Source of the DNA: Phycisphaeraceae bacterium
GTDB lineage: Bacteria > Planctomycetota > Phycisphaerae > Phycisphaerales > Phycisphaeraceae
Assembly: GCA_965214155.1 (NCBI GenBank)
Contig: CBDCBB010000004.1
Location: 84,248-148,247, forward strand
Reading direction: 5' to 3'
DNA: 64,000 nucleotides
Below are positions 1 to 38,483 of the stretch, piece after piece; positions within the stretch are counted from its first letter, which is position 1, and every line of letters begins with the position of its first letter. Position numbers and translations under genes: made by a program. The notes below the pieces were generated by a model that saw only the letters and a list, made by a program, of their open reading frames with translations, was not told the DNA's origin and made no database searches.

Positions 1-1422
1 CCGCGCGTGGGGAAGCAGCCCGGTGTGCGGTCGGCCATCGACGAGGCGGCCGTCCTGGACAAACCCCTCGGGCCGGTCGCGGAGGTGGTCGATCAGGTGC
101 TCCCGCCACCGTTTGAGCGTGGCCGCATAGGCCGCGTCCCCGGCCAGGTCGTGCATCTCGTGGGGGTCGGGGGTCAGATCGAACAGCAGCTCGTCACCGT
201 TGCCGAAGCGGATGTACTTGGTGCGGCCGTCGGTGATCGTGTGGAAGCCGGTGTGGATGTGCCAGCGGGGAAACTCGCTGTGGACAAACGGCCGCCACTC
301 CGCAGGGCCGCTGGCCGCGCCCTCGCCACGGATCAACGGCAGGACGCTGCGCCCTTCGACGTGATCGGGGTATTCCACGTCGGCGGCTTCGCAGAGCGTG
401 GGGAGCACATCGATTAGAGAAACCGCCTCATCGCGGACCTGCCAAGGGTCGATCCCGGGGCCGTGCAGCAGGAACGGGATCCGCACCGCCCCCTGGTACG
501 GCTGGCATTTACGGAAGCGGTAATGATCGCCCAGCAGCTCGCCGTGGTCCGACGTGAACAGCAGGTAGGTCGGTTCCCGCTCCAGAAGCAGGCGGTTCCA
601 CACGTTGTGCAGCAGGTCGTCGACGTGATTGATCAGGCCGTAGTAGCCCGCCTGTGCCGAGCGGAGCAGCTCACCCCGCAGGTCGACCACGGCGTCATCG
701 ACCGGCACCCCCAGGACGCGTTCGGGCCGCTGCGCCCAGTCTCCGATGAACGGCGGCCGCAGGTCCATGCGGAGGTACCGCTCGAAGTAGCTTGCCGGCG
801 GGGTCAGCGGCGGGTGCGGGGCGGTGAAGCCGAGCGACAGGAAGAACGGCTGGTCCCGGTCCCGTGTGTCGAGGAACTCCACCGCCTTGCTCGCCGCCCA
901 GTTCGACTGGTGCAGCCACTCCTCGTACGGCCACGGCCGGGCGGTGTAGCCATCCACGGGCAGCCCGTGGTCCAGCCGGTGGGGCCACCCCGGCCAGCCG
1001 GGCCGGTGCGACAGCGGCCGCACCTTGTCATGGAAGACGGTGTACCGGTCGGTGTAAGGCGTATGGACCACCGTCTCGAAGCCGTACCGCGCGTGGCCCG
1101 GGTACTGGTGCATCCCCCGCCCGATCATCGCCGTCTGATACCCCGCGCCGCGGAGCAGGTTCGGCAGCGTTGATTCTGGATTGAGGATGCGGCAAGGGCT
1201 GTTATCCAGCTGCCCATTACTCGCCGGCGACCGACCGGTCATGACCGAATGCCGCGCCGCCGAGCAGATTGGGCTAGGGGTATAGGCCTGCCGAAAACGT
1301 GCCCCCCGCGCCGCGAAATGATCGAGCATCGGCGTGATGACGTCCGGATGCCCGTCGATCGACAACGCATCGCCGCGCTGCTGATCGGTCATGATCAGCA
1401 CGATGTTGGGTCGGGAAGGCAA
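1..1422 (-). CDS. Sulfatase (S1 family), 3' end runs off the window
   Basis: Not in ORF track. Manual translation from TTG 1422 gives PNIVLIMTDQQRGD...YTPSPICSAARHSVMTG (CxAxR signature), GYQTAMIGRGMH and C-terminal ELLFDLTPDPHEMHDLA, in frame at position 1. Confidence 0.88.
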   Translation of the reverse strand, partial: MPSRPNIVLIMTDQQRGDALSIDGHPDVITPMLDHFAARGARFRQAYTPSPICSAARHSVMTGRSPASNGQLDNSPCRILNPESTLPNLLRGAGYQTAMIGRGMHQYPGHARYGFETVVHTPYTDRYTVFHDKVRPLSHRPGWPGWPHRLDHGLPVDGYTARPWPYEEWLHQSNWAASKAVEFLDTRDRDQPFFLSLGFTAPHPPLTPPASYFERYLRMDLRPPFIGDWAQRPERVLGVPVDDAVVDLRGELLRSAQAGYYGLINHVDDLLHNVWNRLLLEREPTYLLFTSDHGELLGDHYRFRKCQPYQGAVRIPFLLHGPGIDPWQVRDEAVSLIDVLPTLCEAADVEYPDHVEGRSVLPLIRGEGAASGPAEWRPFVHSEFPRWHIHTGFHTITDGRTKYIRFGNGDELLFDLTPDPHEMHDLAGDAAYAATLKRWREHLIDHLRDRPEGFVQDGRLVDGRPHTGLLPHAR

Positions 1423-1470
1423 GGCGACACCCTGATCCAGGAGCGGGAAACCGATGCCGAGGTAGCCGGA

Positions 1471-2814
1471 TCAGCGGTGCCCGCGACCCGGGTTTCGGCG
1501 GAGGGCGACCAGCCCAACGAGGCTGATGACGGTCAGCGCCGTGGGCTCGGGTACCTGGACGAGGCGGTAGGTCCGGGCACCGTAGTCGCCGAGGCTGTCG
1601 GTGAAGGTGTTTCCGGTGATGGCAAAGGAGGTGCCGGTGTCGAGCGCGACGGCCTCGCCAAACCGGCCGATCAGGCTGTTGAGGGTAAACAGCGGGTCCT
1701 CGCTGCCGTCGGTGTTGTTGACCGCCAGCAGGTAGTAGACGCTGTCGTTGGGGTCCTGGAAAAGCAGACTCGTGACGTCGCCCCGGTTGTCGGTGACCCC
1801 CGCGTTGATCGCTCCCTCGCCGAACGCGGCGTCGGCCTCTCCGAGCTCCTGGAGCAGCGGCTTGAGCACGCCGCCGGCCCACCTCAGGCCGGTGTCGCCG
1901 TAGGGCTCGTCGGGGAACGCCTGGCTGGCGTAGGTGAAGTTCGAGTCCCAGAACGCCAACCCGTCGGCTCCGATGGCGACGTTGTAGTAGGACATAAACC
2001 GCAGTTCCTCCGCGGTGGGCAGACGCCACCGCTTGCCGTCGTCCCGCTGCACAGGGCCGAAGCCGCTGTGCCCGAACGCCTGGATGACCGGGACCCACGG
2101 CTCGTTACGGCTGGCTGCGCCCCGCTGCGACTGCTGCATCCAGTGCTTCCACCCGCGGTCGAGCCCGAACAACCCGCTGTTCTCCAGCCCCTCAAACTCG
2201 TCGTCGCCGACGAAGAAGGGGTAGTCGTGCGTGGTCAGCACATCGCGGGTCTTGTCGCTGGCGCTGCCGTAGTAGTTTTGCTGGGTGTTGGGTTCGTCCG
2301 CGTCGATGTCGCCGTAGATCGGCCGGCCCAGCGGATCGGCGGCTTTGATGAGGTCGTAACCCTGCTGATAGCCGGAGGCGGGAAGGGTCGGTTCGTCGTA
2401 GATGTACCAGCCACGCAGCGAGTTAAGGTTGTTGTCTACGGCAAATTTGCTCATCGACGTCACGTAGGACTGCAGCTTGTCGCCGTGGCGGACGCCGTTG
2501 CCGTCTACCGTGTCCGGCGCGCCCGCCCACACCGTATTGACCTGGACGATGACGCCCAGCCCGACGGTATTGGCCTGATTCAGATAGCTTCTCGTTGCGT
2601 TCTCGGTCAGGCCTTGCGAGTAGATGATCGCCACCTCACCGCCGAGGCCTTTGATGGTGCCCGCGGGCCCGCCGGTGGCGGGGGCGTAGCCGGCGGGGTG
2701 GGCGTAGACGATCAGGTCGAAGTTGTCCTGAGCGGCGGCCGACAGCGTCGGGGCGGCCGCCGCGAGGGCGAGCGTCAAAGCGGCAACGGCGGGTCGGCGG
2801 AAAATTGGCATCAT
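1471..2814 (-). CDS. PEP-CTERM-anchored secreted protein with glycoside-hydrolase-like TIM-barrel domain
   Basis: Signal peptide (AALTLALAAAAPTLSAAA), internal GWYIYDEP/HDYPF/AIGADGLAFW motifs, C-terminal VPEPT + TM + basic tail. Confidence 0.85.
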   Translation of the reverse strand: MMPIFRRPAVAALTLALAAAAPTLSAAAQDNFDLIVYAHPAGYAPATGGPAGTIKGLGGEVAIIYSQGLTENATRSYLNQANTVGLGVIVQVNTVWAGAPDTVDGNGVRHGDKLQSYVTSMSKFAVDNNLNSLRGWYIYDEPTLPASGYQQGYDLIKAADPLGRPIYGDIDADEPNTQQNYYGSASDKTRDVLTTHDYPFFVGDDEFEGLENSGLFGLDRGWKHWMQQSQRGAASRNEPWVPVIQAFGHSGFGPVQRDDGKRWRLPTAEELRFMSYYNVAIGADGLAFWDSNFTYASQAFPDEPYGDTGLRWAGGVLKPLLQELGEADAAFGEGAINAGVTDNRGDVTSLLFQDPNDSVYYLLAVNNTDGSEDPLFTLNSLIGRFGEAVALDTGTSFAITGNTFTDSLGDYGARTYRLVQVPEPTALTVISLVGLVALRRNPGRGHR

Positions 2815-2940: not shown

Positions 2941-3783
2941 TCAGGCGCGGCGGCCGCGGCCGGCGAGGGCGAGGGCACCCAGGCCCAGCAGCGCGAGGCT
3001 GGCGGGCTCGGGAACAGCAGAGACGTCCAGCGTGGCACGGTCAAGAACCAGCGAGCGGTTGAAGACCCCGTCCCGCTGGGTGCCGGCCCCGATGAAAGCG
3101 TTATCGCCAAAATCAGAGAGCTGCGTGCCGGCCGCAAGAACGCCGACCTGAGACAAAGCTAGTTGAGCAGAAGTAACACTGTACGTGTTGTCCGAACTCA
3201 CCTGGATCGTCAAATCAAACGCCTGCGAAACGTCGGCGACGGTGACGCCGCTAAAGATCGTGGTGTTGACGTTCGCTTTGCGGAAAAGGAAGGAGACAAC
3301 GCCGCCGGTGAAGTCGCCATCGCGACCGGTGTTATCAGGATCGCCGTTCGTGATGAACAACTGGTAGCCGCCGATGGTGGGGGCGAAGAAATTGACGTTC
3401 GAGTCCTGGATCGCGAAGATGTCGCGGAACCCGGTGTTCGGCGTGGCACCGACCGCGAAGGTGGCGGTTACCACGTCGGCGGCGGGGTCGACTGTCCCTG
3501 AGTCTTGGCTGGAGATGCTGCCGCCGTTGGCACCGGGCGACGTGGGGAGGTTCGCCCCGGTGATGGTGAGAGTGGTGCCGGCCTCCACAAACGTGGGCTG
3601 GTTGCCCGAGTTGCGGTTGGTGCGGGTCAGGAAGCCGTCGCCGATGCCGGTGGTGTTGGTGGCAACATTGCCGTCGTTGAAATCGTCGTTGACCACGATT
3701 GCCGCGGACGCGGAACCGGCTAGCAAGCCGAAGCTGGCGAGACCGGCGAAGAAGATGCGGGGGGCGGGGACGATGCGAGTCAT
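2941..3783 (-). CDS. PEP-CTERM sorting-domain protein (beta-rich, function unknown)
   Basis: ATG 3783 preceded by GGAGGT Shine-Dalgarno; signal peptide ending ASA; C-terminal VPEPASLALLGLGALALAGRGRRA. Confidence 0.88.
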   Translation of the reverse strand: MTRIVPAPRIFFAGLASFGLLAGSASAAIVVNDDFNDGNVATNTTGIGDGFLTRTNRNSGNQPTFVEAGTTLTITGANLPTSPGANGGSISSQDSGTVDPAADVVTATFAVGATPNTGFRDIFAIQDSNVNFFAPTIGGYQLFITNGDPDNTGRDGDFTGGVVSFLFRKANVNTTIFSGVTVADVSQAFDLTIQVSSDNTYSVTSAQLALSQVGVLAAGTQLSDFGDNAFIGAGTQRDGVFNRSLVLDRATLDVSAVPEPASLALLGLGALALAGRGRRA

Positions 3784-4121: not shown

Positions 4122-4127
4122 AACCGC

Positions 4128-5261
4128 ATGCTCACGCTCGATGCTCCGAAGTACCAGCAGATCGCCGACGTGCTGGCGCGGCGGATTCGGGGCGGCGAGT
4201 ACGGCGTGGGGCATCAGCTTCCCTCCGAGCATGACCTGTCCCGCACGTTCAACGTCAGCCGGGTGACGACACGTCAGGCCCTATCGGTGCTTGAGTCTGC
4301 GAAGCTGGTTGATCGTCGGCGGGGTTCGGGCACCTTCGTCTCCGATCAGCAGCCGCTTGTGGACACCCCGGTTCTGACCATGGACGGCACCCGGGTGGGT
4401 AATTTGTGCCTTCTGCTCTGCGATATGGCCCGCTTCCAAGGCACCTCCCGGACCCATCGCGATGTCGGGGCGGCGACCGCAGCGGTGCACCAGCGTGGGC
4501 TTACGGTGACGGTAGGTAGTCTCGAGTCCGCCTCGTGCATGGACGGGGTCGCCGCCCGGTCCGCGTGTGCTTCAGACTGTCAGGGGGTGCTGCTCGACGG
4601 GTACGTCAGCGACATCCATCACGCGGTGTGTCGACACCATCTGGACGTGCCGAGCCTGGTGGTGGGCAATCACCACCTCGCCTCGGGCACCCCGCAGGTG
4701 CGCCTCGATGTGGCGGCCTACCTCGAGGCGGGGCTGGCGGCGTTGCGGGGGGTGGTGGACGGCCCGCTGATGCTGTTGTGCGACCCGTTCCTGCTGGCGA
4801 TGACCGACGACATCGTGGCGGGGTATGTCGAGTACACGGTGCGGGAGGGGTTGCCGCAGGGAATCTTCACCCCGCCGCGGGGCCTCGTGGACCAGGACAT
4901 CGACACGCGGCTGGAGCACTGGGACGGCGGGCTGGCCGTCGAGGGGTTCCTGCGGCAGGGCCACCGCCGCTTCGGGCTGTTCGTGCAAGGCACCAACTTC
5001 CTGCCGTCGATGCTCGAGACGCTGGACCGGCGGGGCCTGGGCCCGGCGGACGTGCCCGTGGTGGTGCTCGACACGGTGGGCAGCCTCGCGCTGCTCTCGC
5101 CCCGGCAGCGTGCGCGGGTGCACCAGTTGCCCGTGGACCTCAAGGGGCTGTACCTGCGGGCCATCGAGGTGCTCGAACGGGACGCCGGACGCGCCGCGGC
5201 TGATCCGATCGTTCAATGGTCCGACCCCCGCATCCTTCACCCCACCGAGGCGCGTCCGTGA
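4128..5261 (+). CDS. GntR-family regulator with C-terminal periplasmic-binding-protein-like sensor domain
   Basis: N-terminal wHTH KYQQIA...LPSEHDLSRTFNVSRVTTRQAL...RGSGTFV, plus about 280 aa LacI-like effector domain. Confidence 0.85.
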   Translation: MLTLDAPKYQQIADVLARRIRGGEYGVGHQLPSEHDLSRTFNVSRVTTRQALSVLESAKLVDRRRGSGTFVSDQQPLVDTPVLTMDGTRVGNLCLLLCDMARFQGTSRTHRDVGAATAAVHQRGLTVTVGSLESASCMDGVAARSACASDCQGVLLDGYVSDIHHAVCRHHLDVPSLVVGNHHLASGTPQVRLDVAAYLEAGLAALRGVVDGPLMLLCDPFLLAMTDDIVAGYVEYTVREGLPQGIFTPPRGLVDQDIDTRLEHWDGGLAVEGFLRQGHRRFGLFVQGTNFLPSMLETLDRRGLGPADVPVVVLDTVGSLALLSPRQRARVHQLPVDLKGLYLRAIEVLERDAGRAAADPIVQWSDPRILHPTEARP

Positions 5262-5386: not shown

Positions 5387-6154
5387 ATGCGACGTAAACT
5401 TACTTCATCTGATCTGTCAAGCGTTCGCGGGCATCGTCGCAGCGGCTTCACGCTGATCGAGCTCCTGGTGGTAATCTCGATTATTGCGCTGCTGATTTCG
5501 ATCCTGCTGCCCGCACTCGGCGCGGCGCGAGCCGCGGCCCGGGGGGCGCAGTGCATGAGCCAGGAGAAGCAGATGGGCATCGCGTTCGCGACGTCGCTGA
5601 ACGACTACCATTACCTCTACCCGCAGCAGCCCAATACCGCAGCCGGTGGCCTCGCGGCGAAGGACGCCACCTGGTGGGGCCGCATCGGTCCGTACATCAA
5701 CTGGGAGGAGAGCAAGTACGGGACCGCGGGCTTCTATGAGGCCGAGGGCACTATCGGCCGCTGCCCCGAGCCTACCGGGACCCCCGCCAACGTCGATGCA
5801 GGCAGCTTCTCCTATTACGGCAACTGGCAAGTAATCACCGCGCCCAACGTTGCCTCGGGCAGCCTGATCGGACCCGACGCGATCTCAGACACGGACATTG
5901 CGAAGCCGTCGGATACGGTGCTGGTGTTCGAGGTACATAGCTACATGCGGTGGCCGGTGACCGGTCACGGCCTCACTCGGGGCCAGGCGCCGTATGTCCC
6001 GGCAGGCGGCACCTTCGCCGAGCGGGACGGCCGCACCGCGGTGCACAACGGCGGTCTCGCCTTCCTGTGGGTCGACGGCCACGTGAACATGCTGCAGGAC
6101 CAGGGCTTTACCCCCATCTACCTAGGCCCGCAGTCGCAGTTCGACAGAAAGTGA
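5387..6154 (+). CDS. DUF1559-type prepilin N-terminal cleavage/methylation protein with H-X9-DG motif
   Basis: [29 protein letters not shown]...CMSQEKQ; C-terminal [13 protein letters not shown]; AGGAG RBS before ATG 5387. Confidence 0.92.
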
Positions 6155-6209: not shown

Positions 6210-6232
6210 CTCAACCCTGTTTGGAGCAACTC

Positions 6233-9200
6233 TTGCGATCATCCCTCTCCGTACTCGCGGCGTTGGCTGCCCTTGCTTTGTCGGGCGTTGCCCTGGCCGA
6301 AACCCACTCGGTGGTGTTGCCCGGCGACGCGGTGGTTCTGCTTGAGGGGGCCGACGGCCAGCGGCACCTAGAGGTGCTTTCGGTGCGGCTGCAGCCACGG
6401 GGCTTCCCCGACGACATCGGCCGGGGCCTGGACCTGTTCAAGGTGGCGGTCGATGGCGAGCACCAGCAGGTCTTCGCCCTCAGCGACGCCGACGGCGGCT
6501 CGCTGTACCGCTTCGACCGTTCGCTGGAGCAGACCTTCAGCTCACAGAAGAAAGGTTGGAAGCAGCAGGAATACCGCGACATCGTGGCGACGCCCCGGGC
6601 GATGGTGCTGCTCAGCGGCCGCAACGGCGGGCGGCTGGTGCGGATGGACGCGGGGCTGCGGCGGGTGAAGTGGGGGCCGACGGACCTGGGGGGCCGGACT
6701 GTCGCGGCCTCGCCGGACGGCACGTCGTATTACGTCGGTGACGAAGCGTCGGGGGGGACGCTCTACCGGTTCAACGCCGACCTGGACGAGGCATCGAAAA
6801 CGGGTGGGCCCGACGCGGGGCTGCGAAACCTGGACGTGGTGGGGCTGGCGGCGTTAGATGACGGCCGCATCGCCGTGGCGAGCAAGCGAGACGGCGGCCG
6901 CGTGATGGTGTTCGATTCGGCCCTGCAGCCGCTGCCCGGGGTGCCGGGTGGCGGCGGCGAGGGCTTGGAGCCGCTCGCGATCGCTGCCGACGGCGGCGGG
7001 GTTCTGGTGGCGAGCGGCACCGACGGCGGCCGGGTGCTGCGGCTGAACGGGGAGGGTGAACGGGTGGCGGCCTCCGTGCCGCTGCCGGGCCTCGTCTCGG
7101 TGCACGTCAACGGACTGGACGGCACGGTGGTGGCGGTGGCGGGCGGGGGGCGGCGGGTGGTGCGCCTCTCTGGGGACCTGCAGACGGTGATGAGCGAGCG
7201 GGAGTTCTCCGGGGGCAAGGTGGTGTCGCTGGCGATGGCACCGCCCCCGCCGCTGCCGCAGTTGGTGACGCCGCACGCATCGTGGACCAACACGCTGCGG
7301 CCCGGGGGCGAGCCGGCGGGTGAGCTGGCGGTGAGCGGGGACGGCGGGGCGGCGTTCGATATCCTCGTGCCCGAGGGGGCGACACCGCAGGAGGATAAGG
7401 CGGCGGTCGACCTTGCGTACTGGCTCGGGGCGGCCACGGGCACCCGGCCGGTGATTCGCGGCGACGACGGGCCGACGGCGGGCGACCGCCCGTTCATCAG
7501 TGTCGGCCGCACCCGGCAGGCCGCCGCCGCGGACGACGTCTCCGCCGATGCCGAGACGGGGGCCGAGGGCTACCGGATCGCGATGCACGGCGGCAACCTG
7601 TACCTCACCGGCGGCGACCGCCGCGGCCCGATCTACGCGGTCTATGCCCTGCTCGAGGAGGACCTGGGCTTCCGCTGGTTCGACCGCACCACGGTGATGA
7701 TGCCCGACGGCGGCGAGGGCGAGCTGGTCCTGCGGCCGGTCGCCCGCTCCGCCGAGCCACCGCTGGAGCGGCGCGACCCGCACTATACCGATGCGTTCAA
7801 CACCGACTGGTCCTTGCGCAACCGCACCAACGGGCCCCGCTCGCCGGTGCCCGCGGCCTGGGGCGGGTACGCCCGCACCGTGCCGAGCTTCGTGCACACC
7901 TACAACTACCTGTTGCCCCCCGCGGAGTATTTCAAGCCGCACCCGGAGTGGTTCGCGCTGCTCAACGGCAAGCGGCTGCCCAAGCAGCTGTGCCCGATGC
8001 ACCCCGACGGGCGGGCGACGATCATCGCCCGGGTCCGGCAGATGCTCGCCGACACGCCCGAGGCGACCTACATCGACATCTCGCCCAACGACTTCCCGGA
8101 CTTTTGCGAGTGCGAGTTGTGCACGCCGGTGATCAAGCGGGAGGGCACGGCGATGGGCCCGCTGCTCTCGCTCACCAATGCCGTGGCCGAGGCCATCGCC
8201 GACGAACACCCCGACGTGTTGGTGACGACGCTTGCGTACCTCACCACGGTGGAGCCGCCCCGGCGGATGCGGCCGCACCCGAACGTGCGGGTCGTGTACG
8301 CCACGAACAACCACTGGATGACGATCTGCCGGCCGGTGACGGACAACAAGGTGATCCTCGATCATGTGGCCGCGTGGCGGCGGATCCGCGTGCCGCTCCA
8401 CATCTGGCACTACCCCATCCAGTACGGTCAGTACGTCCGCCCGATCCCCAACATGGCGGTGATGACCGAGGACCTGCGATATTTCATCGGGCAGGGAGCG
8501 ACCGGCTTCATGTACCAGGCGAACCACAGCCACAGCCTCGGCGTGGACCGGGCGAAGCAGCGCTGCTGGGTCTGGTCGAAGCAGATGTGGGACCCGGACC
8601 GTGACACCCGTGACCTCATCCGCGACTTTACCTACGGCTATTACGGCGAGGCCGGCGATGAGATGATGGCGTACCACGAGATGCTGTGGGACATGGCGGC
8701 CCGGCTGCAGGACTCAGAGTACTTCCAGGACCCCTGGAAGAGCCAGCAGCCGATCTTTCAGCCGCAGTTCGTCGACGCGGCGATGCCGCACCTCGACGCG
8801 GCCCTCGCCGCCGCCGCGGGTAATGAGGCGCTTACCGGCCGAGTTCAGTTGGCGCGCCTGCCGGTGCTTTACGTGAAGGGCGAGCTCGGGCCGGGCGACG
8901 ACCTTAAAGGCTACCTCGACGCGGTGGATGAGGTCGAGCAGACGGCCAAAGCGAACGGGGTGCGGTTCCTGAAGAAGGGGCTTGCCGCGGCCCCGGACCG
9001 CGATGAGTTGATCCAGACGTGGCGGAACCTGGCGGTGGTGAAGCCCGAGATGCTGGACATCGAGACCGTAGGCCCGGCGTGGAAGCTCAAGGCCGACCCG
9101 GACGACGCGGGTCTGGACGCGGGATGGGCGAAGCGTGGCCTCGACGACGCCGACTGGCTGGACGTGGAAGTGAAGAACGGCAGCTTCTGGGAAAAAACGG

Positions 9201-9577
9201 GCATGCCGGACTACGACGGGCACGGCTGGTACCGCACGACGCTGAACGTCCCGGCAAAGCTGATGAAACGCAAGCACCTGTACCTGCTCTTCGGGGCGGC
9301 CGACGAGTACGCCGAGGTGTTCCTCGACGGCGAGCGGGTGATCGACCACTCCTACGCGGCGACGCTGCTGCCGCCCGACGCTTCGTGGAACATGCCCTTC
9401 GCCGCGGACCTGCACGAGAAGGTGCGGGCGGGTCGGCCGTACCAACTGGCCGTACGGGTGCACGACAGCCAGGCGGCGGGCGGGCTGTGGAAGCCGGTGT
9501 GCCTTGTTGGCAGCGACCAGGCACTGCCCGCCGAGACGTTGCAGGCGTTCGTCGAGAAGGCCGGCAAGGGTGAATAG
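6233..9577 (+). CDS. Secreted multidomain protein: beta-propeller + DUF4838 + C-terminal galactose-binding-like (GH2 sugar-binding-type) domain
   Basis: TTG 6233 with GGAG; signal peptide; propeller-like repeats; EGYRI...TGGDRRGPIYAVYALLEEDLGFRWF typical of DUF4838 proteins; C-terminal WKLKADP...YDGHGWYR...LLFGAADE. Confidence 0.75.
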   Translation: MRSSLSVLAALAALALSGVALAETHSVVLPGDAVVLLEGADGQRHLEVLSVRLQPRGFPDDIGRGLDLFKVAVDGEHQQVFALSDADGGSLYRFDRSLEQTFSSQKKGWKQQEYRDIVATPRAMVLLSGRNGGRLVRMDAGLRRVKWGPTDLGGRTVAASPDGTSYYVGDEASGGTLYRFNADLDEASKTGGPDAGLRNLDVVGLAALDDGRIAVASKRDGGRVMVFDSALQPLPGVPGGGGEGLEPLAIAADGGGVLVASGTDGGRVLRLNGEGERVAASVPLPGLVSVHVNGLDGTVVAVAGGGRRVVRLSGDLQTVMSEREFSGGKVVSLAMAPPPPLPQLVTPHASWTNTLRPGGEPAGELAVSGDGGAAFDILVPEGATPQEDKAAVDLAYWLGAATGTRPVIRGDDGPTAGDRPFISVGRTRQAAAADDVSADAETGAEGYRIAMHGGNLYLTGGDRRGPIYAVYALLEEDLGFRWFDRTTVMMPDGGEGELVLRPVARSAEPPLERRDPHYTDAFNTDWSLRNRTNGPRSPVPAAWGGYARTVPSFVHTYNYLLPPAEYFKPHPEWFALLNGKRLPKQLCPMHPDGRATIIARVRQMLADTPEATYIDISPNDFPDFCECELCTPVIKREGTAMGPLLSLTNAVAEAIADEHPDVLVTTLAYLTTVEPPRRMRPHPNVRVVYATNNHWMTICRPVTDNKVILDHVAAWRRIRVPLHIWHYPIQYGQYVRPIPNMAVMTEDLRYFIGQGATGFMYQANHSHSLGVDRAKQRCWVWSKQMWDPDRDTRDLIRDFTYGYYGEAGDEMMAYHEMLWDMAARLQDSEYFQDPWKSQQPIFQPQFVDAAMPHLDAALAAAAGNEALTGRVQLARLPVLYVKGELGPGDDLKGYLDAVDEVEQTAKANGVRFLKKGLAAAPDRDELIQTWRNLAVVKPEMLDIETVGPAWKLKADPDDAGLDAGWAKRGLDDADWLDVEVKNGSFWEKTGMPDYDGHGWYRTTLNVPAKLMKRKHLYLLFGAADEYAEVFLDGERVIDHSYAATLLPPDASWNMPFAADLHEKVRAGRPYQLAVRVHDSQAAGGLWKPVCLVGSDQALPAETLQAFVEKAGKGE

Positions 9578-24335: not shown

Positions 24336-24665
24336 CGCGCTTGGAACGTGCAAAGTTAGGCCGCAATCGCCGACCCTCACCCGCGGGAACGGGAAGCCAC
24401 GTGGGGCCCCACGAGGGGTTGGCGATGTTGAGCCCGTACACACCGAGGTTTGAGAAGAAGTTGAAGCTGAAAGTCCAGCGGTTGCCGAGTCCGATCCGCA
24501 AGCCCGCCACGTCCCGCCTGAAGGGGCCGTGCGACGGCAAATAACGCTTGATCTGCGGTGGCCGCAGTGTGGCAGGCCGCGACCATCACCCCGAACCCGT
24601 CCCGCACCGGTTGTGACTCCGACTCGTATCAGCCGTCACGACGGCTCCCCCATCCCGCGGGTCCC

Positions 24666-31776: not shown

Positions 31777-31791
31777 CTGCACCTTCCCGGG

Positions 31792-31826: not shown

Positions 31827-32561
31827 ATGGCCTTCGCCGCCGCCTCACGCAAGTCCAGCCACACCCGCGTCACCGAGACGCTCGGCCGACGCATCGTCCG
31901 GGGCTCCTACCCCAGCGGCGACCTCCTGCCCCACGAGGCGCGGCTGACCGTCGGCCTGTCCGTCAGCCGCACCATCCTCCGCGAGTCGCTCCGCACCCTC
32001 TCGGCCAAGGGGATGATCGAGGCCCGACAACGCGTCGGCACCCGCGTCACCGACCGCCGGCGGTGGAACCTCCTCGACGAGGACGTCATCGGCTGGCACG
32101 TCCTCGAACGCCGCCACCACCCCGACCTGTTCCGCCAGGTGGTCGAGGCTCGGATGGTGGTCGAGCCCGTCGCCGCGGCCATGGTCGCCCACCGCGCCGA
32201 CGCCCGGGACGTCGCGGCCATCGAGGAGGCGCTGCACCGCATGACAACGGCGGGCGCGGACCTGACCGCGTACCTCGACGCGGACGTGGTGTTCCACCGA
32301 TCCATTTACGACGCCGCGGGCAACGAACTCTTGGGGCAGATGGGCAACGTCCTGATCGCGGCGCTGCACCTGAGCCATGCGGTGACGTCGCGGGTCCCCG
32401 ACGCGATCGGCCGGTCGCTGCCGCTGCACGTCAAGCTGGTCGAGGCGATCCGTCGCCGCTCGCCCGCCGCCGCCCGCCGCGCCACCGAACGGCTGATCCG
32501 CTGCGTGATTGAGGACCTCGAGGCGACGCTCGGCTGCACGCTGGAAGTGGGGCCGCTGTGA
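31827..32561 (+). CDS. FadR/GntR family regulator (FCD domain)
   Basis: LPHEARL...VSRTILRESLRTL...RQRVGTRV; EARMVVEP; DVVFHRSI. Confidence 0.92.
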   Translation: MAFAAASRKSSHTRVTETLGRRIVRGSYPSGDLLPHEARLTVGLSVSRTILRESLRTLSAKGMIEARQRVGTRVTDRRRWNLLDEDVIGWHVLERRHHPDLFRQVVEARMVVEPVAAAMVAHRADARDVAAIEEALHRMTTAGADLTAYLDADVVFHRSIYDAAGNELLGQMGNVLIAALHLSHAVTSRVPDAIGRSLPLHVKLVEAIRRRSPAAARRATERLIRCVIEDLEATLGCTLEVGPL

Positions 32562-33511
32562 CATTCGCCCGCGGCACCGAGGAGCTCCGCGACGGGCTGT
32601 GGCGGCTGAACGAGCCGCTGGGCAGCCGGTTGCTGTCGTACTACGCCTTGCGGCAGGACGGCGGGTGGCTGCTGTGGGACGCGGGCCTGCCCGGGTCGAT
32701 CACCGGGCGGCTTGACACGGGCACCTGGGGCGGGGCCGTCACCGGCCTGATCGTCTCGCACGCCGACGCCGACCACCTCGGCGACGCCGCCCGGCTCCGC
32801 GAGCGCTTCCCGGAGCTGTCCATCCGCTGCCACCCAGCCGACCGCGCGTGGATCGAGGACCACGACCTGCTCACCGCCGAACGCTACGACCACGCCCGGA
32901 GCCGCTACGGCTACGCGTACCCCGACGAATTGCTCACCGCCCTGCGCGGCGTGTGCGGCGACGACTTCCGGGTCGATGCCACGCTCGACGACGGCGACAC
33001 GGTCGACGCGGCGGGGGTCGCCTGGCGCGTGATGCACGCCCCGGGTCACAGCCCCGGGCACCTGTGCCTGTGGTGCGAGGCGACGGGCGTGCTGCTGCTT
33101 AGCGACGCGGCGCTCGGCCGCGGCGCGCCCGACGCGGCGGGCCGCCCGTCGATGCCGCCGACGCACCAGCACGTCGCGCCGTACCTGGACACCCTCGACC
33201 GGCTCGCGGCGCTCCCCGTCACGACGGCGCTGCCGGCCCACTGGGAGCCGTTGGACGGCGAGACGTTCCAACGGTTCATCCGCGAAAGCCGCGAGGTGGT
33301 CTACCGCGACCTGGCGACCGTGGAGGAGGCGGTGCGTCGCGGCGAGGCGACGACCTTCTCCGGGTTGATGTCGGTGCTCAACGGCCGCTGGTCGACCTGG
33401 CCCGAGTCGGAGGACGGCCACTACTTCTACGCGCTGGCGGGCTACCTCGAGCACCTGGAAGCGGCGGGTGCGATCCGTATCGATGCCGAGGGAAAGGCGG
33501 AGCCGGCATGA
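32558..33511 (+). CDS. Metallo-beta-lactamase-fold hydrolase
   Basis: SHADADH, HAPGHSPGH, LSDA, PAHW; GTGA-coupled to FadR. Confidence 0.85.
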   Translation: MTFARGTEELRDGLWRLNEPLGSRLLSYYALRQDGGWLLWDAGLPGSITGRLDTGTWGGAVTGLIVSHADADHLGDAARLRERFPELSIRCHPADRAWIEDHDLLTAERYDHARSRYGYAYPDELLTALRGVCGDDFRVDATLDDGDTVDAAGVAWRVMHAPGHSPGHLCLWCEATGVLLLSDAALGRGAPDAAGRPSMPPTHQHVAPYLDTLDRLAALPVTTALPAHWEPLDGETFQRFIRESREVVYRDLATVEEAVRRGEATTFSGLMSVLNGRWSTWPESEDGHYFYALAGYLEHLEAAGAIRIDAEGKAEPA

Positions 33512-34302
33512 GCGAGGTCATCGGCAAGGGGCTGCTCGACGGGGTGCGGGCCGTCGTCACCGGCGGCGGGCAGGGCCTGGGCCACAGCATCGCCGCGCGC
33601 TTCGCCGCGTGCGGGGCGACGGTAGCGATCCTCGACCGCGACGGGCCGCTGGCCGGGCAGGCCGCCGCCGCGCTGCCGGGCGGGGGGCACCTCGGCCTGG
33701 CCGCGGACGTGACCGTCGCCGCCGAGCGCGAGGAGGCGGTAGGCGAAGCGATCGACCGCCTCGGCGGGCTTGACGTGCTGGTCAACAACGCCGGCATCCA
33801 GCTCCACGCGCCCGCCGAGGACATCACGGCGGAGCAGTGGGAGAAGGTCCTGAGCGTCAATCTCACGGCGGCGCTGATGATGAGTCAACTCGCCGCGCGG
33901 CACCTCATCGCCCGGGGCAGCGGCGGGTCCATCGTCAACATCGGCAGCCTCGGCTCGCTCCTGGCGATGCCCCGACGGACGATCTACGGCACGTCCAAGA
34001 CCGCCGTGCTCGGGCTCACCCGCCACCTCGCCGTGGACTGGGCCCGCCACGCCATCCGCGTCAACGCCGTCTGCCCCGGCTACCACCGCACCCCGCTCTA
34101 CGAGGACTACGTCCGACGCGGCGCCATCGACGAAGACCGCATCCTCAACCGCATCCCGATGCGACGCCTGGGCGCACCCGACGACGTCGCCGACGCGGCG
34201 GTCTTCCTCGCCTCGCCCCTGTCGTCGTACCTCACCGGCCAGGCCCTCACCGTCGACGGGGGCTACTCCGTCTATGGCGCGGCGGAGGACACCCCTTCGT
34301 GA
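33508..34302 (+). CDS. SDR oxidoreductase
   Basis: TGGGQGLG, NNAG, YGTSK, VNAVCPG. Confidence 0.92.
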   Translation: MSEVIGKGLLDGVRAVVTGGGQGLGHSIAARFAACGATVAILDRDGPLAGQAAAALPGGGHLGLAADVTVAAEREEAVGEAIDRLGGLDVLVNNAGIQLHAPAEDITAEQWEKVLSVNLTAALMMSQLAARHLIARGSGGSIVNIGSLGSLLAMPRRTIYGTSKTAVLGLTRHLAVDWARHAIRVNAVCPGYHRTPLYEDYVRRGAIDEDRILNRIPMRRLGAPDDVADAAVFLASPLSSYLTGQALTVDGGYSVYGAAEDTPS

Positions 34303-35408
34303 GCGGCACGATCCGCAAGCTCGACGCCTTCGAGGTTACGGTGCCCCTGCCCCGGCCCCTCGCCCTCGGCGGGATGTCCATCGCCGACCGGCGCTATTGC
34401 ATCGTCCGCATCGAGGACGGCGACGGCCGCGTCGGCGTCGCCTACGGCCTGACCCGCAACGCGCCGGTCGCCGCCACCGTCGCCCGCACCGTCGCGCCGC
34501 TGTGGCAGGGCGCTGCGCTCGACGGCCACCACACCCTGTACGAGAAGACGGTCCGCGCCAACGTCTGCCTCGGGACCGGCGGCATCTTCTGGCGGGCGCT
34601 CAGCCTGTGCGACTGCGCGCTGTACGACCTGCTCGCGCAGCGGGCGGGGCAGCCGCTCGGGGTATTCCTCGGCGGAATGCGGCGGCGCGTGAAACATCTG
34701 CTGGTGGGGGGCTACCCGTCGCCGGACGAGACGGCCGAGGCGCTGGCGGAACAGATGCACGCGCTGGCGTCGCAGCGACCCGACGGCGTCAAGGTCGCGA
34801 GTTGCGGCGACTTCGCCCGGGATGTGCAACGCCTCGAAACCTGCCGCGGGGCGCTCGGCGGGGACACGCCGCTGATGCTCGACCTGTTCTGGCAGGTCAA
34901 CGACCCCCGGGCTTTCGCGAAGCAGGCCGCCGGGCTGACCGGGCTCGGGATGGGCTGGATCGAGGACCCCGTCGGGTTCGACGACTACGACGGCCTCAAG
35001 ACGCTCCGCCGCACGCTCGACGTGCCGATCGCGATGGGCGACGAGCAGAGCGGCCGGCGCACGTTCGAGCAGCTGACCCGGCCGGGGCGGGTCGACGTCG
35101 TGCGGCTGGACGCGACGGTGTGCGGCGGCGTCCGCGCCTTCATCGCCATCGCCGCGATGGCGCAGGAGCGGGGACTGAAAGTCGCCTGTCACATGGCGGA
35201 CCAGTTGCACCTGCAACTGGCGCACGCCGCGCCGAACGTGGCGTGGGTCGAGCGGATGCCCGAGGCGCTGGGCCTGGACTCGGCGCACCTGCTGTGGGCC
35301 GACGCCGGCGACCGTGGCGGGCCGACCCCCGCGACGCCTCGGCCGGGCGTCGGCATCGTGTGGGATGATGAGGCGTTGGAGCGGTACCGGAGTGCGGCGT
35401 CATGGTGA
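34299..35408 (+). CDS. Mandelate racemase/muconate lactonizing enzyme (enolase superfamily) protein
   Basis: GTG 34299; CDCALYDL, metal ligands LDL/WIEDP/GDEQ, DATVCGG, CH. Confidence 0.88.
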   Translation: MSGTIRKLDAFEVTVPLPRPLALGGMSIADRRYCIVRIEDGDGRVGVAYGLTRNAPVAATVARTVAPLWQGAALDGHHTLYEKTVRANVCLGTGGIFWRALSLCDCALYDLLAQRAGQPLGVFLGGMRRRVKHLLVGGYPSPDETAEALAEQMHALASQRPDGVKVASCGDFARDVQRLETCRGALGGDTPLMLDLFWQVNDPRAFAKQAAGLTGLGMGWIEDPVGFDDYDGLKTLRRTLDVPIAMGDEQSGRRTFEQLTRPGRVDVVRLDATVCGGVRAFIAIAAMAQERGLKVACHMADQLHLQLAHAAPNVAWVERMPEALGLDSAHLLWADAGDRGGPTPATPRPGVGIVWDDEALERYRSAASW

Positions 35409-36187
35409 GCATCGACCTGAACGGGCAGAACATCCTGTTGACCGGTGCGCTCGGCGCGATCGCGGAGTTCGTCGTGCGGCGGCTGACCGAGGCCGGGGCG
35501 ACGGTGTGGTGCACCGACGTCGCGGCGCCGGAGGCGGCGCGGCAGACGCTCGACGGCTGGGGCATCCCCGAGGCGCAGTCGCCCTACGCCAAGATGGACG
35601 TGACCGACGCGGCGGCGGTCGACCGCGTCGTGGCGGGGCTCATCGACGCGCACGGCCCGGTGGACGTCTGCCTCGGCCACGCGGGGGGCTGCGGGATGCA
35701 CCCCTTCGCCACGACCGAACCGGCCGAGTACGAACGCATCTTCCGTTTCAACTACTTCGGCCAGGTGAACCTCACCCGCGCCGTCACCCGGCACTGGCGC
35801 GACGGCGACCGGGCCGGGCACATGATCTATACCTCGTCGCTGGTCGGGTCGATCCCCTGGCCGGACCTCGCGGCGTACAACTCGGCCAAGGCGGCGCTCG
35901 AGATGTTCGCTAAGACGATGGCCCTCGAACACGCGGACCGCGGCATCCGTTTCAACGTCGTCGCCCCCGGCCACGTCGCCGCGGGCTCGGCCCTCAAGGT
36001 TTACCAAGAGGACCCGGCGTACCGACGTATGACCGACCGTGTCATCCCGCTCAAGCGGCTGGTCCGTCCCGAGGGCATCGCCGACGCGCTGCTCTTCCTC
36101 TGCTCGCCGCTGGCGGGCGAGGTCAACGGGCAGGTGATCCACGTCGATCTAGGAACCAGCATCCCCAAATTAGGAGGTGAAGCGTGA
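35402..36187 (+). CDS. SDR oxidoreductase (atypical Gly-rich motif)
   Basis: LTGALGAIA, YNSAK, FNVVAPG. Confidence 0.88.
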   Translation: MVSIDLNGQNILLTGALGAIAEFVVRRLTEAGATVWCTDVAAPEAARQTLDGWGIPEAQSPYAKMDVTDAAAVDRVVAGLIDAHGPVDVCLGHAGGCGMHPFATTEPAEYERIFRFNYFGQVNLTRAVTRHWRDGDRAGHMIYTSSLVGSIPWPDLAAYNSAKAALEMFAKTMALEHADRGIRFNVVAPGHVAAGSALKVYQEDPAYRRMTDRVIPLKRLVRPEGIADALLFLCSPLAGEVNGQVIHVDLGTSIPKLGGEA

Positions 36188-36495
36188 TCTACGAGTGGCG
36201 GGTTTATACGTGCCGGCCCGGGACCGCGGGCGAGGTGCTGCGGCTGTGGGAGGAGCGCGGCCGGGCGATGCTCGAGCCGTACTTCGAGATGGCCGGGCAG
36301 TGGACCGGCGAGTCGGGCGTGGGCAACCGCATCTACACGCTGTGGGTCTTCCGCGACCTCAACCACCGGCAGGAGGCGCGGCGGGCGCTGCTGAAGCACC
36401 CCGGCTTCGCGGAGTACCTCGCCGAATGCCGGGCGTACTACGTCGAGCAGGAGGCGGTGTTCTTGTCGCCCACGCCGCTGAGCCCGCTGCAGTGA
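36184..36495 (+). CDS. NIPSNAP family protein
   Basis: MIYEWRVY...NRIYTLWVFRDLNHRQEAR...LSPTPLSPLQ. Confidence 0.88.
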   Translation: MIYEWRVYTCRPGTAGEVLRLWEERGRAMLEPYFEMAGQWTGESGVGNRIYTLWVFRDLNHRQEARRALLKHPGFAEYLAECRAYYVEQEAVFLSPTPLSPLQ

Positions 36496-36503
36496 GGGTG
36501 CCG

Positions 36504-37649
36504 ATGCGACTGAGAGGCTTGACCTGGCAGAACCCGCGGGGCTACGACCCGCTCGTCGCGACGGCGGGGGCGTGGGCGGAGCGTGAGCCAGACGTGGAGG
36601 TCGCGTGGGAGGCGCTGCCGTGGATCGACTTTGAGCACCGGTTGATCGACTCGTTCGAAGGTCGGGCCGAGCCGTACGACCTGGTGATGCTGGACCACCC
36701 GTGGGTCGGGACGCTGTCGTCGCGGGGCTGGCTGCGGGCGTGGGACGAGCTGGCGGAGCCGGACTATTTGGCCGAGCTGCGGGGGCGGGTGGTCGCGCCG
36801 AGTTACGAGAGCTACGTGTGGGGCGGCCGGCTGTGGGCGCTGCCGGTGGACGCGGCGTGCCACGCGGGGCTGATCCGGCGCGACCTGGTGGACGCGGCGG
36901 ACCTGCCGCGAGAGTGGCGCGACATCGCGGCCTGGGCGGCCGACTACCGCTCGCCGACGGTGCGGTACCCGCTGGTGCTGAGCGTGAGTTCGGTGCTGGG
37001 CCACTGCCTGTTCCTGGCGTTGATGCAGGCGCGGGGGACGCCGCCTTACACCGAGGCGGAGCGTCCGCGGTGCGACCGCGACGCGGCCGCCGACGTGCTG
37101 GAGGCCATCGTGGACCTCTTGCGGTTCGTGCCGCCGGAATCGGCGCGGTGGGGGCCGTGGGACATCTACGAGCACCTGACGGCCCACGACGACGTCGCGT
37201 GGAGCCCGCAGATCTTCGCGTACGTCAACTACTTCGACGCCGCTTCGCCGCGGCGGCTCAAGCTCGTCGACTGCCCGTCGTGGAGCGGGCACGAGGCGAC
37301 GCCGATCCTCGGCGGGGTGGGGCTGGCGGTGAGCGCCCGGTCGCAGCACCCCGACGCCGCCGCGGCGTACGCCCGCTTCACGATGTCCGAGCCGGCGCAG
37401 CGCGACCTCTTCCCCCACCACCGCGGCCAGCCCGCGGCCCGGTCGGTCTGGACCGACCCCCACCTCAACCGCCCGGCCGACGGCTTCTATACCGACCTGC
37501 TCCCGCAGATGCGGCGGAGCTTCGTCCGGCCCCGCTACCCCGGCTTCCACGACCTCGAACTCCGCAACGCCGACGTGCTGCAACGCCTGTGGGACGGCGA
37601 CGCCACGATCCCGCAGACCGTCGCCGCGCTGCACGATCCGCTGGGTTGA
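36504..37649 (+). CDS. ABC-type sugar solute-binding (family 1) fold protein lacking a signal peptide
   Basis: MRLRGLTWQNPRGYDP, YDLVMLDHPWVG, SYVWGGRLWALPVDAA, ILGGVGLAVS. Confidence 0.8.
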   Translation: MRLRGLTWQNPRGYDPLVATAGAWAEREPDVEVAWEALPWIDFEHRLIDSFEGRAEPYDLVMLDHPWVGTLSSRGWLRAWDELAEPDYLAELRGRVVAPSYESYVWGGRLWALPVDAACHAGLIRRDLVDAADLPREWRDIAAWAADYRSPTVRYPLVLSVSSVLGHCLFLALMQARGTPPYTEAERPRCDRDAAADVLEAIVDLLRFVPPESARWGPWDIYEHLTAHDDVAWSPQIFAYVNYFDAASPRRLKLVDCPSWSGHEATPILGGVGLAVSARSQHPDAAAAYARFTMSEPAQRDLFPHHRGQPAARSVWTDPHLNRPADGFYTDLLPQMRRSFVRPRYPGFHDLELRNADVLQRLWDGDATIPQTVAALHDPLG

Positions 37650-37700
37650 ACCCGTTCCCGTCCCCGCCTTGGATAAGACGCCCCGGCCCCACCGACACCC

Positions 37701-38483
37701 GTGACTACTCCTCAAACCAATCCGCCCCCCGGCTCAATCCACTCGCTCGCCGGGCACGTCGCCCTGATCACCGGCGGCGGGTCGGGCATCGGGCTGGGGA
37801 TCGCCCGGGCCTATGTCGATGCCGGAGCCAAAGTGGTCCTGATTGGCCGTCGTGAGGGCCCTCTGCAGGAAGCGTGCGGCTTGCTGGGTGATGCGGCGAC
37901 GTGGCGGGCGTTGGACCTCCAGAACCTCGCGGGCATCCCGGCGTTGGTGGACGACGTGAAGCAGGCGGGCACGCCGCCGACGCTGCTGGTCCACGCCGCG
38001 GGCATCCATCGCAAGGCGTCCTTGAGCAACACCTCCGACGCCGACCTGGCGGAGATGTGGCAGGTCCACGTCGCCGCGGGTTTTGCGCTGGCCCGGGCCA
38101 TGCACGGCACGATGTGCGGAGCGAACGGCTCGATCCTCTGGATCGCGTCGATGGCGGCACTGATCGGCCTGCCGCACGTCTCGGCTTACTCCGCGGCGAA
38201 GAGCGCCGTCACCGGCCTGGTGCGGGGCCTTGCCGACGAGCTCGCCGCGTCGGGCATCCGCGTCAACGCCATCGCCCCGGGCTGGATCGACACGCCCCTG
38301 CTCCGTGCCGCGCTCGACCGCGACCCGGCCCGCCGCGACCGTATCCTGCAACGCACCCCGCTCGGCCGCTTCGGTAGCGTCGAAGAAGTCGGCCACGTCG
38401 CCGCCTTCCTCGCCTCCCCCGCGGCCAGCTTCATCACCGGCACCGTCCTCCCCGTCGACGGCGGAGCCGCGGTCGGCTTCTAG
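37701..38483 (+). CDS. SDR oxidoreductase (gluconate 5-dehydrogenase-like)
   Basis: TGGGSGIG, YSAAK, VNAIAPGW. Confidence 0.9.
   Translation: MTTPQTNPPPGSIHSLAGHVALITGGGSGIGLGIARAYVDAGAKVVLIGRREGPLQEACGLLGDAATWRALDLQNLAGIPALVDDVKQAGTPPTLLVHAAGIHRKASLSNTSDADLAEMWQVHVAAGFALARAMHGTMCGANGSILWIASMAALIGLPHVSAYSAAKSAVTGLVRGLADELAASGIRVNAIAPGWIDTPLLRAALDRDPARRDRILQRTPLGRFGSVEEVGHVAAFLASPAASFITGTVLPVDGGAAVGF

Follow-up and report, generated by a model that had tools for sequence, protein, structure and literature searches.

We analyzed 64,000 nucleotides of DNA from a Phycisphaeraceae bacterium, which we will refer to as the window. The window is C4:84248-148247 (C4 is contig CBDCBB010000004.1) in a 4.56-Mb, 99%-complete assembly (GCA_965214155.1). 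Positions 1-38483 carry genes for sulfatases, glycosidases, and a putative transporter of the SSS family. On balance, we favor the view that these genes are part of an island for consuming a sulfated fucose-rich glycan, and that the work is split between compartments: capture outside the cell, import of small fragments, and desulfation and trimming in the cytoplasm. The glycan probably contains rhamnose and amino sugars as well. Taken alone, the cytoplasmic location of the sulfatases and exo-glycosidases is something that we are highly confident of.

Because the G+C content of the window is 65-73%, we called genes by their third-position G+C, and we annotated them with Pfam. Positions 1-38483 hold about 27 genes. 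The three sulfatases, the GH29, GH78, and GHL6/GH151-like proteins, and the unknown enzymes that were listed in an earlier note on this DNA are all present. The right border proposed there is reasonable, since the housekeeping genes RecA, SLT, Fur, and RuvC lie past about 40 kb. Since these 38 kb bring together GH29, GH78, GH151-like, and SSS genes with regulators of the GntR and FCD types, the region is a carbohydrate-active enzyme (CAZyme) gene cluster of the kind found in the Planctomycetes-Verrucomicrobia-Chlamydiae (PVC) superphylum.

For each gene, we listed every in-frame ATG, GTG, or TTG back to the preceding stop codon, and we identified signal peptides with a hydropathy heuristic, not with SignalP. 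For ten enzymes (the three sulfatases, GH29, GH78, the GH151-like protein, and four unknowns), there was no usable upstream in-frame start. Even if the upstream open stretches were translated regardless of start codons, they contained no hydrophobic core (the maximum hydropathy over 10 residues was at most 1.5). This bears out the earlier claim that nearly all of the enzymes lack signal peptides: signal peptides or upstream starts for most of them were looked for and were not found.

The three sulfatases are all Cys-type. Sulfatase A (1..1422, minus strand; motif CSAAR) matches Pfam's Sulfatase family with E = 3.7e-46, from residue 5 onwards; the whole gene encodes 481 amino acids and extends 23 nt past the window's left edge. 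Sulfatase B (10838..12292, plus strand; motif CLPAR) and sulfatase C (18185..19741, minus strand; motif CTPSR) match the same family with E = 2.8e-36 and 8.8e-51. The motifs, which we read in the N-terminal sequences, are those of formylglycine-dependent S1 sulfatases, and the matches to PF00884 are at 126-173 bits. Sulfatases A, B, and C have 16, 1, and 36 open codons upstream (in B, a single codon separates the ATG from the preceding stop), and none of these is ATG, GTG, or TTG. The proteins start just 4-5 residues ahead of the first strand of the Pfam domain, which begins at residue 5-6. Sulfatase C has over 2,000 homologues at E = 1e-30. The best 120 of these are 49-61% identical to it, cover 93-100% of the query, and are mostly about 500 amino acids long. 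We read the N-termini of 11 homologues: nine begin right with the core strand, while two have N-terminal extensions that are not hydrophobic. The clade has named members in Opitutaceae, Victivallales, Gemmataceae, Puniceicoccales, and Tepidisphaeraceae, and this type of leaderless sulfatase is widespread across the PVC superphylum. The genome also has five matches to the FGE-sulfatase domain. The two best (273 and 270 bits) begin at the domain and are leaderless, which suggests that Cys-type sulfatases can be matured in the cytoplasm.

The glycosidases are leaderless as well. They include a GH29 α-L-fucosidase (12427..13476, minus strand; Pfam Alpha_L_fucos, E = 8.2e-32), a GH78 α-L-rhamnosidase-like protein (13842..16322, minus strand; Bac_rhamnosid6H and Bac_rhamnosid_C), and a 676-amino-acid GH151-like α-L-fucosidase (24666..26696, minus strand), which is GHL6/GH29-like and matches Alpha_L_fucos, GH42M, GHL10, and GHL6. 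The best solved relative of the latter is the α-L-fucosidase 6TVK (E = 2.2e-10 over residues 10-462), which we take to be a GH151 enzyme. Three other leaderless proteins are an enzyme of 399 amino acids (9621..10820, plus strand) with no family match in Pfam or NCBIfam, a PIG-L-family de-N-acetylase (23515..24540, minus strand; Pfam PIG-L, E = 1.3e-25), and a NagB-like protein (22562..23500, minus strand; a weak match to NCBIfam's nagB, E = 1.5e-3).

For two more leaderless proteins, we relied on AlphaFold2 models. The protein at 30079..31782 (minus strand), which is encoded directly upstream of the SSS gene, is modeled as a β-sandwich and a (β/α)8 barrel (pLDDT 88.2). Foldseek matches this model to GH36 α-galactosidases and to the α-galactosaminidase of Flavonifractor plautii (E = 1e-21 to 1e-19), with TM scores of 0.5-0.6 (about 0.55) and 10-13% identity. 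We call it GH36-like for its clan GH-D fold; it has no sequence match in Pfam, NCBIfam, or PDB, and its sequence does not place it in GH36 or clan GH-D. The protein at 20229..22487 (plus strand; the start might be at 20295) is modeled as a β-sandwich and an (α/α)6 barrel (pLDDT 88.5). Its Foldseek matches are weak (the Bacteroides polysaccharide lyase 5NO8, GH127, GH76, and sugar epimerases), and it is a candidate glycosidase or lyase. Judging by the models, it is credible that both proteins are carbohydrate-active enzymes of undescribed families. Among 22 sequences of the (α/α)6 family that we read, one (from Terriglobales) has a Tat leader and the other 21 have no evident leader.

The exported proteins of the island carry textbook Sec, lipoprotein, or PEP-CTERM signals, and they are limited to the set that had been proposed: two PEP-CTERM proteins, DUF1559, DUF4838, a PhoPQ-related (PqaA-like) protein, and a CBM9-like lipoprotein. 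One of the PEP-CTERM proteins is an anchored enzyme of 447 amino acids (1471..2814, minus strand) with a Sec-type leader (MMPIFRRPAVAALTLALAAAAPTLSAAA|QD) and a C-terminal VPEP...RR signal (VPEPTALTVISLVGLVALRR); it has no match in Pfam or NCBIfam. The other is a surface protein of 280 amino acids (2941..3783, minus strand; Pfam PEP-CTERM, E = 1.4e-06). Its true start is the ATG at 3783, which has GGAGG ahead of it and a signal peptide after it. The DUF1559 protein (5387..6154, plus strand) is pilin-like, of the prepilin (H-X9-DG) type, with a prepilin motif and matches to N_methyl and SBP_bac_10. The DUF4838 protein (6221..9577, plus strand; E = 6.4e-73) has 1,118 amino acids, a Sec leader, and GH20b-like and GH2_N-like domains; its PDB match is restricted to the C-terminal sugar-binding domain. 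The PhoPQ-activated-pathogenicity-related protein (16646..18076, minus strand; PF10142, E = 1e-100) has the leader MLETFTRTVAMLPLLAVILGCVSPAAWA and belongs to a family that we presume to be α/β-hydrolase-like. The CBM9-like lipoprotein (26734..27597, minus strand; CBM9_1, E = 1.8e-3) has the lipobox LTLLSC.

The absence of leaders extends beyond the island. When we read the N-termini by eye, just 6 of the 36 PF00884 loci in the genome had a leader. We also applied a fixed hydropathy rule to 33 of these 36 loci and to every locus of two genomes that are labeled as the same genus (G008 and G003). By this rule, 18% of the sulfatases in our genome have a leader (6/33), versus 76% in G008 (45/59; P = 7e-8, Fisher exact test) and 60% in G003 (12/20; P = 3e-3). 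The genome's four GH29, three GH78, and GH95 copies are all leaderless. Overall, about 82% of the sulfatases and all of the fucosidases and rhamnosidases in this genome are leaderless. In Kiritimatiellales, which are sulfatase-rich PVC bacteria and for which cytoplasmic sulfatases have been tabulated, about 68-71% of the sulfatases of strains F1 and F21 have signal peptides (PMC6388578), versus about 18% here. Planctomycetal CAZymes are mostly predicted to be secreted, including nearly all of those for algal glycans (PMC11131199). The cytoplasmic bias is genome-wide and lineage-specific, not general to planctomycetes, so the idea that it reflects a planctomycete design for a polysaccharide utilization locus (PUL) did not hold up.

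The region is the right-hand part of an accessory island that reaches 30 kb or more past the window's left edge and measures upwards of about 70 kb. Leaderless proteins encoded in the left flank are two further sulfatases and a GH95 fucosidase; the flank also encodes a DUF3604-like protein, two PhyH dioxygenases, a GDSL esterase, an FAD oxidoreductase, and a 719-amino-acid protein with just a faint match to Glucodextran_N. A second envelope set is found there too, in which an AraC-type regulator is joined by one DUF1559 and one PEP-CTERM protein, along with a large GH39-like protein that is exported. In total, the extended island has five sulfatases and three fucosidase families.

Orthologs of most of the island, at 48-84% identity, are present in a metagenome contig, contig_98 (115 kb) of ENA ERZ25070547, in a rearranged gene order. 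Identities are 60-84% for the genes of the FCD operon (described below), 63% for the GH36-like enzyme, 60% for the (α/α)6 protein, 79% for sulfatase A, 67% for the GH151-like fucosidase, 69% for SSS, 63% for DUF1559, 55% for DUF4838, and 48% for the CBM9-like lipoprotein, which is in the same position after SSS. In contig_98, a gene for 363 amino acids takes the position of the 399-amino-acid enzyme, another gene takes the position of sulfatase B, and the sulfatase A ortholog adjoins the SSS operon, but convergent to it. Contig_98 also has additional genes (further sulfatases, PhyH, DUF3604, GH2, and GH95-like). That the core set has stayed together through these rearrangements argues for functional linkage. 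Both islands divide their proteins alike into exported and leaderless ones, which argues that this pattern was selected and is not an accident of annotation.

Several results weigh against a single system for a sulfated fucose-rich glycan, and they bear on two alternatives. First, the island could be a mosaic of independent operons (for fucosides, rhamnosides, amino-sugar glycosides, and a sugar acid) instead of one co-regulated system. The genes, which lie on both strands, form five or more transcription units, and the extended island has three regulators of different types. These are a GntR-family regulator with a long C-terminal domain (4128..5261, plus strand; Pfam GntR, E = 4.4e-18), a GntR/FCD regulator of the FadR type (31827..32561, plus strand; Pfam FCD, E = 7.6e-25, and GntR) that is divergent from the GH36-like/SSS operon, and the AraC-type regulator of the left flank, which has a Peripla_BP_3 domain. 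The 45-nt intergenic region between the FCD regulator and the GH36-like gene contains the palindrome AAGTACGACTT. When we compared the intergenic regions, we found no common operator and no shared 11-mer of note. Three different regulators with no shared operator make several regulons likely, and the region is probably several regulons rather than one. In this respect, the earlier note's description of the region as one utilization system was not supported.

The FadR-type regulator is followed by an oxidative sugar-acid operon (32558..38483, plus strand; annotated with Pfam), whose seven genes encode, in order, an MBL-fold hydrolase, an SDR, an enolase-superfamily dehydratase, an SDR, NIPSNAP, SBP_bac_1, and an SDR. 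The dehydratase is closest to talarate/galactarate dehydratases (E = 1.6e-30) and galactonate dehydratases, and not to fuconate or rhamnonate dehydratases (rhamnonate dehydratase, E = 3.5e-17); it is below every NCBIfam equivalog cut-off. For the non-phosphorylative pathway of L-fucose or L-rhamnose, the window has neither an aldolase nor a terminal hydrolase. The similarities of the dehydratase do not support assigning this operon to fucose or rhamnose, and the proposed link to these sugars is not established.

The comparison of genomes cuts both ways. The (α/α)6 gene was absent from all 20 of the related reference genomes that we searched. In the roughly 40 kb of the orthologous island that we inspected, where gene order differs, we did not see the GH29/GH78/PhoPQ/sulfatase C module, nor the PIG-L/NagB-like pair. 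The island is accessory and modular. However, if its operons were independent, the core (the FCD operon, GH36-like, (α/α)6, sulfatases A and B, GH151-like, CBM9 lipoprotein, SSS, DUF1559, DUF4838, and the 399-amino-acid enzyme) would not be expected to travel together in two genomes as it does. We consider the mosaic to be a serious but fairly unlikely explanation.

The second alternative concerns transport. Bacteroidota PULs have adjacent SusC-like and SusD-like genes, and this region has no such pair. A search of the whole genome for the Plug domain (PF07715) found nothing, and there is no such open reading frame (ORF) in C4:50-128 kb. The missing SusC is thus a property of the organism: the lack of TonB-dependent receptors and SusCD that had been pointed out is real, but trivial as a feature of the island. 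ABC permease domains number about 22 in the whole genome, next to about 11 SSS and 5 MFS genes; the island contains no ABC permease and no MFS gene, which agrees with the earlier statement about ABC permeases. SSS is the sole ORF with multiple transmembrane segments in positions 1-38483 of the window, and in C4:50-128 kb there is just one other, which encodes an uncharacterized protein at about C4:50.7-52.0 kb. So SSS does appear to be the only transporter, as had been claimed, with the addition of a leaderless SBP_bac_1 protein (36504-37649) that has no permease nearby.

The putative SSS transporter (27594..29927, minus strand) is long (777 amino acids) and divergent (Pfam SSF, E = 1.8e-10). 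Its match to PF00474 (40.7 bits, with a cut-off of 22.8) covers residues 368-498 only, it scores 56 bits for NCBIfam's sss versus a cut-off of 184, and it has no PDB match by sequence. Its hydropathy profile shows about 14-15 hydrophobic, putatively transmembrane segments and an acidic C-terminal tail. The start of the gene for the CBM9-like lipoprotein overlaps its stop. We considered whether the lipoprotein is a general partner of SSS, and rejected this: with tblastn, it is beside SSS in just 3 of 71 loci, and phmmer confirmed it in 2 of 41 downstream ORFs that we extracted. Homologues of SSS, at 32-57% identity, are found in Victivallales, Phycisphaerae, Planctomycetota, Opitutia, Lentisphaeria, and Akkermansia.

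In this alternative, the organism would be scavenging monomers rather than importing oligosaccharides. Exported enzymes or neighboring microbes would free sulfated mono- or disaccharides, SSS would import them, and the cytoplasmic sulfatases would act on them. Characterized SSS transporters carry small solutes. Across 70 loci, the neighborhoods of SSS homologues share SSS only, with rare CBM9-like, GH78, or SDR neighbors. In a metagenome-assembled genome of Akkermansia muciniphila (L030:9998-12807), an SSS homologue of 657 amino acids (37% identity) is followed by a CBM9-like protein (44%), and this pair sits among genes for PFK, G6PD, 6PGD, and LptF/G, which hints at a simple sugar as the substrate. 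No sulfatase is directly beside SSS (the nearest, sulfatase C, is about 8 kb away), so the island lacks the direct coupling of a leaderless sulfatase to a transporter gene that is seen in import-then-desulfate modules such as ats2 of Bifidobacterium breve or yidJK of Escherichia coli. (Genome-wide, roughly 6-7 of the 36 sulfatase loci are within 20 kb of an SSS gene, versus about 3 expected; we considered this too weak and did not use it.)

In PDB, sulfatases A-C have no close characterized relative that would fix their carbohydrate substrate. Sulfatase A's best matches are 9KOQ (E = 1e-73) and 7OZ8 (E = 1e-70), and sulfatases B and C have matches across several families at 1e-35 to 1e-39. The nearest solved relatives of A and C include 9KOQ, a leaderless arylsulfatase, as well as 4UPL, 4UPI, and 4UPK (unassigned sulfatase-family proteins or phosphonate monoester hydrolases), and none of these four has a defined glycan substrate. 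There is also a precedent for scavenging: in B. breve UCC2003, an intracellular sulfatase acts on imported GlcNAc-6-sulfate, as summarized in PMC7326374, which cites Egan et al. 2016.

On the other side, at least six leaderless enzymes of exo-glycosidase type (GH29, GH95, GH151-like, GH78, GH36-like, and (α/α)6) depend on glycosidic substrates being available in the cytoplasm, so that what is imported must include disaccharides or oligosaccharides at the least. We therefore think that monomer scavenging is unlikely. Of the earlier proposal that oligosaccharides are imported and then desulfated in the cytoplasm, the desulfation is supported, and the import via SSS is not, given the central sugar metabolism around the Akkermansia pair. 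It is possible, if rather doubtful, that SSS imports sulfated oligosaccharides.

Finally, the periplasm of planctomycetes is enlarged and their uptake is poorly understood (PMC12078418), and our signal-peptide calls are heuristic, so leaders might have been missed or the enzymes might be exported by a non-classical route for periplasmic degradation as in other planctomycetes, but this is highly improbable, given ten enzymes with neither an upstream in-frame start nor a hydrophobic stretch, leaderless homologues of sulfatase C, two leaderless FGE maturases, and the textbook signals on proteins from the same island. (Loss of the Tat pathway does not account for the absence of Tat signals: TatC is present in the genome and in 11 of the 12 relatives that we searched.)

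If the island does split the use of a sulfated fucose-rich glycan between compartments, then a small set of proteins outside the cytoplasmic membrane would capture the polymer and make the first cuts. This set would comprise the PEP-CTERM-anchored hydrolase, the other PEP-CTERM protein, the DUF1559 pilin-like protein, DUF4838, the PhoPQ-related hydrolase, and the CBM9-like lipoprotein. Small sulfated fragments would then cross the inner membrane. The long SSS is the sole local candidate for this step, and the CBM9-like lipoprotein might help. In the cytoplasm, the Cys-type sulfatases, matured by the leaderless FGEs, would strip the sulfate; their location is predicted in silico and their activity from their family. 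Judging from their families, the GH29, GH95, GH151-like, GH78, GH36-like, and (α/α)6 enzymes would release monosaccharides, and the PIG-L deacetylase and the NagB-like protein would handle amino sugars. The FadR-regulated oxidative operon may break down one of the released sugars or sugar acids. Of these steps, cytoplasmic desulfation and trimming are well supported by the leaderless enzymes, the two leaderless FGEs, and the same pattern in the orthologous island.

The leaderless state seems to have two origins. In the clade of sulfatase C and the (α/α)6 family it is common, and the GH36-like family differs from these. The GH36-like family is compact, with 84 matches among 1.8 billion representatives. 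Members from Pirellulales, Verrucomicrobia, and Bacteroidales mostly start with a Tat-type leader (e.g., M..RR.FL), while the copy in the window, its paralog, and the closest relative have no leader and start at the mature N-terminus. A member from Opitutales and at least one further representative (P0371, offset +4) likewise begin at the mature N-terminus. From these counts, and not from a tree, it looks as if export is the common state of this family and the cytoplasmic form is derived. The paralog (C10:1726574-1728046) also adjoins an SSS gene. We speculate that this lineage moved almost all of its sulfated-glycan machinery from the periplasm to the cytoplasm, with the GH36-like family losing its Tat signal, although we consider this unlikely. 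If it were true, then sizeable sulfated oligosaccharides must cross the inner membrane, by way of the divergent PVC-specific long SSS (perhaps fed by the CBM9-like lipoprotein) or by some uptake system that has yet to be recognized. This would be a "cytoplasmic selfish" mode, which has not been described for planctomycetes.

How does the island compare to known systems? Like the SusC/SusD PULs of Bacteroidota for fucoidan, ulvan, and host-glycan sulfates, it groups glycoside hydrolases and S1 sulfatases with regulators and a transporter of the inner membrane, and surface proteins would act first. But it has no SusC/SusD, in a genome without any TonB-dependent receptor; its sulfatases and exo-glycosidases are predicted to be in the cytoplasm, not in the periplasm or at the surface; and its envelope parts are PEP-CTERM and pilin-like proteins. 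The architecture is, as was suggested before, unlike that of Bacteroidota. A closer likeness is with marine Verrucomicrobiota, in the same superphylum, which have SusCD-free clusters for sulfated methyl pentoses that combine fucosidases with sulfatases, symporters, and esterases (Orellana et al., PMC8857213); our window and its flank have fucosidases of GH29 and GH95. The inferred substrates (sulfated fucose/rhamnose glycans) are the same. That study did not analyze the localization of the enzymes, which in our island are nearly all leaderless. Also, the Verrucomicrobiota have phosphorylative fucose/rhamnose genes (fucP/rhaT symporters, isomerases, and kinases; PMC8857213), while the operon linked to our island is oxidative, with SDRs and an enolase-superfamily dehydratase.

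With the B. breve clusters, the island shares the logic of import then desulfation by an intracellular S1 sulfatase whose substrate is a sulfated sugar taken up from outside. The maturase of B. breve is of the anaerobic radical-SAM type, and the species has a transporter of its own; yidJ-yidK of E. coli is another import-then-desulfate counterpart. As far as the summary in PMC7326374 goes, the B. breve clusters are small operons for a monosaccharide sulfate, while our island has five sulfatases, FGE-type maturation, many cytoplasmic glycosidases, and an envelope module. And as mentioned above, no sulfatase of the island is adjacent to SSS.

Leaderless sulfatases, SusCD-free clusters in PVC bacteria, and import-then-desulfate routes have all been described before. 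The novelty lies in the scale and in how extreme this lineage is: nearly all sulfatases and methyl-pentosidases are placed in the cytoplasm, not just in a multi-operon island but across the genome. The three undescribed enzyme families and the recurrent envelope module are also new. The island bears on how complex sulfated glycans from algae or hosts are taken up by PVC bacteria that lack TonB/SusCD machinery; a 2025 review describes planctomycetal uptake and utilization pathways as uncharacterized (PMC12078418). This genome is an extreme instance: with nearly all of the downstream enzymes in the cytoplasm, the question of uptake narrows to a few candidates, namely one long SSS, the CBM9-like lipoprotein, and the recurrent modules that combine a regulator and a pilin-like protein with a PEP-CTERM protein and a giant exported hydrolase. 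Pilin-like proteins have been discussed as "fishing rods" for planctomycetal polymer uptake (PMC12078418). Three enzyme families without an assigned activity are now tied to the use of sulfated fucans. More broadly, the localization of enzymes can differ sharply among genomes that are labeled as one genus, which bears on whether degradation can be classed as "selfish" or "sharing" from genomes alone.

We made some other observations about these genes. The envelope module occurs three times within about 55 kb (C4:39107-49006, C4:59767-65430, and window 1471-9577). Each time, it consists of a GntR- or AraC-type regulator, one or two DUF1559 pilin-like proteins, one or two proteins with a signal peptide or PEP-CTERM, and a giant exported hydrolase-like protein (of 1,132, 862, and 1,118 amino acids). 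The genes for PhyH-family Fe(II)/2-oxoglutarate dioxygenases (C4:83403-84122 and C4:65448-66308) adjoin leaderless sulfatases, and likewise in the orthologous island, a PhyH gene (L186:11878-12729) is beside a leaderless sulfatase. The (α/α)6 protein has two paralogs, C6:85745-87844 and C10:1890111-1892210, with the same scores and the same N-termini; either a segment was duplicated or contig C6 repeats part of C10.

In the oxidative operon, the leaderless SBP_bac_1 protein has no ABC permease within about 60 kb, and its ortholog in the relative (L184:2288-3430; 66% identity) has the same position in the operon, which suggests a cytoplasmic binding or enzymatic role. The relative's FCD operon also has an RraA-like (aldolase-type) gene (L186:8527-9192), flanked by the SBP-like gene and the last SDR gene; no such gene is in the window's operon, where the junction measures only about 50 nt. 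Between the GH36-like and SSS genes, there is a perfect inverted repeat (AACAACGT-CGC-ACGTTGTT, window 29975-30005), which is a candidate operator or attenuator inside the operon. Upstream of the GntR-type regulator, window 4080-4130 contains TTGACA and TATGAT with a spacing of about 17 nt. This -10 box ends 6 nt ahead of the regulator's ATG, so the transcript looks like it could be leaderless.

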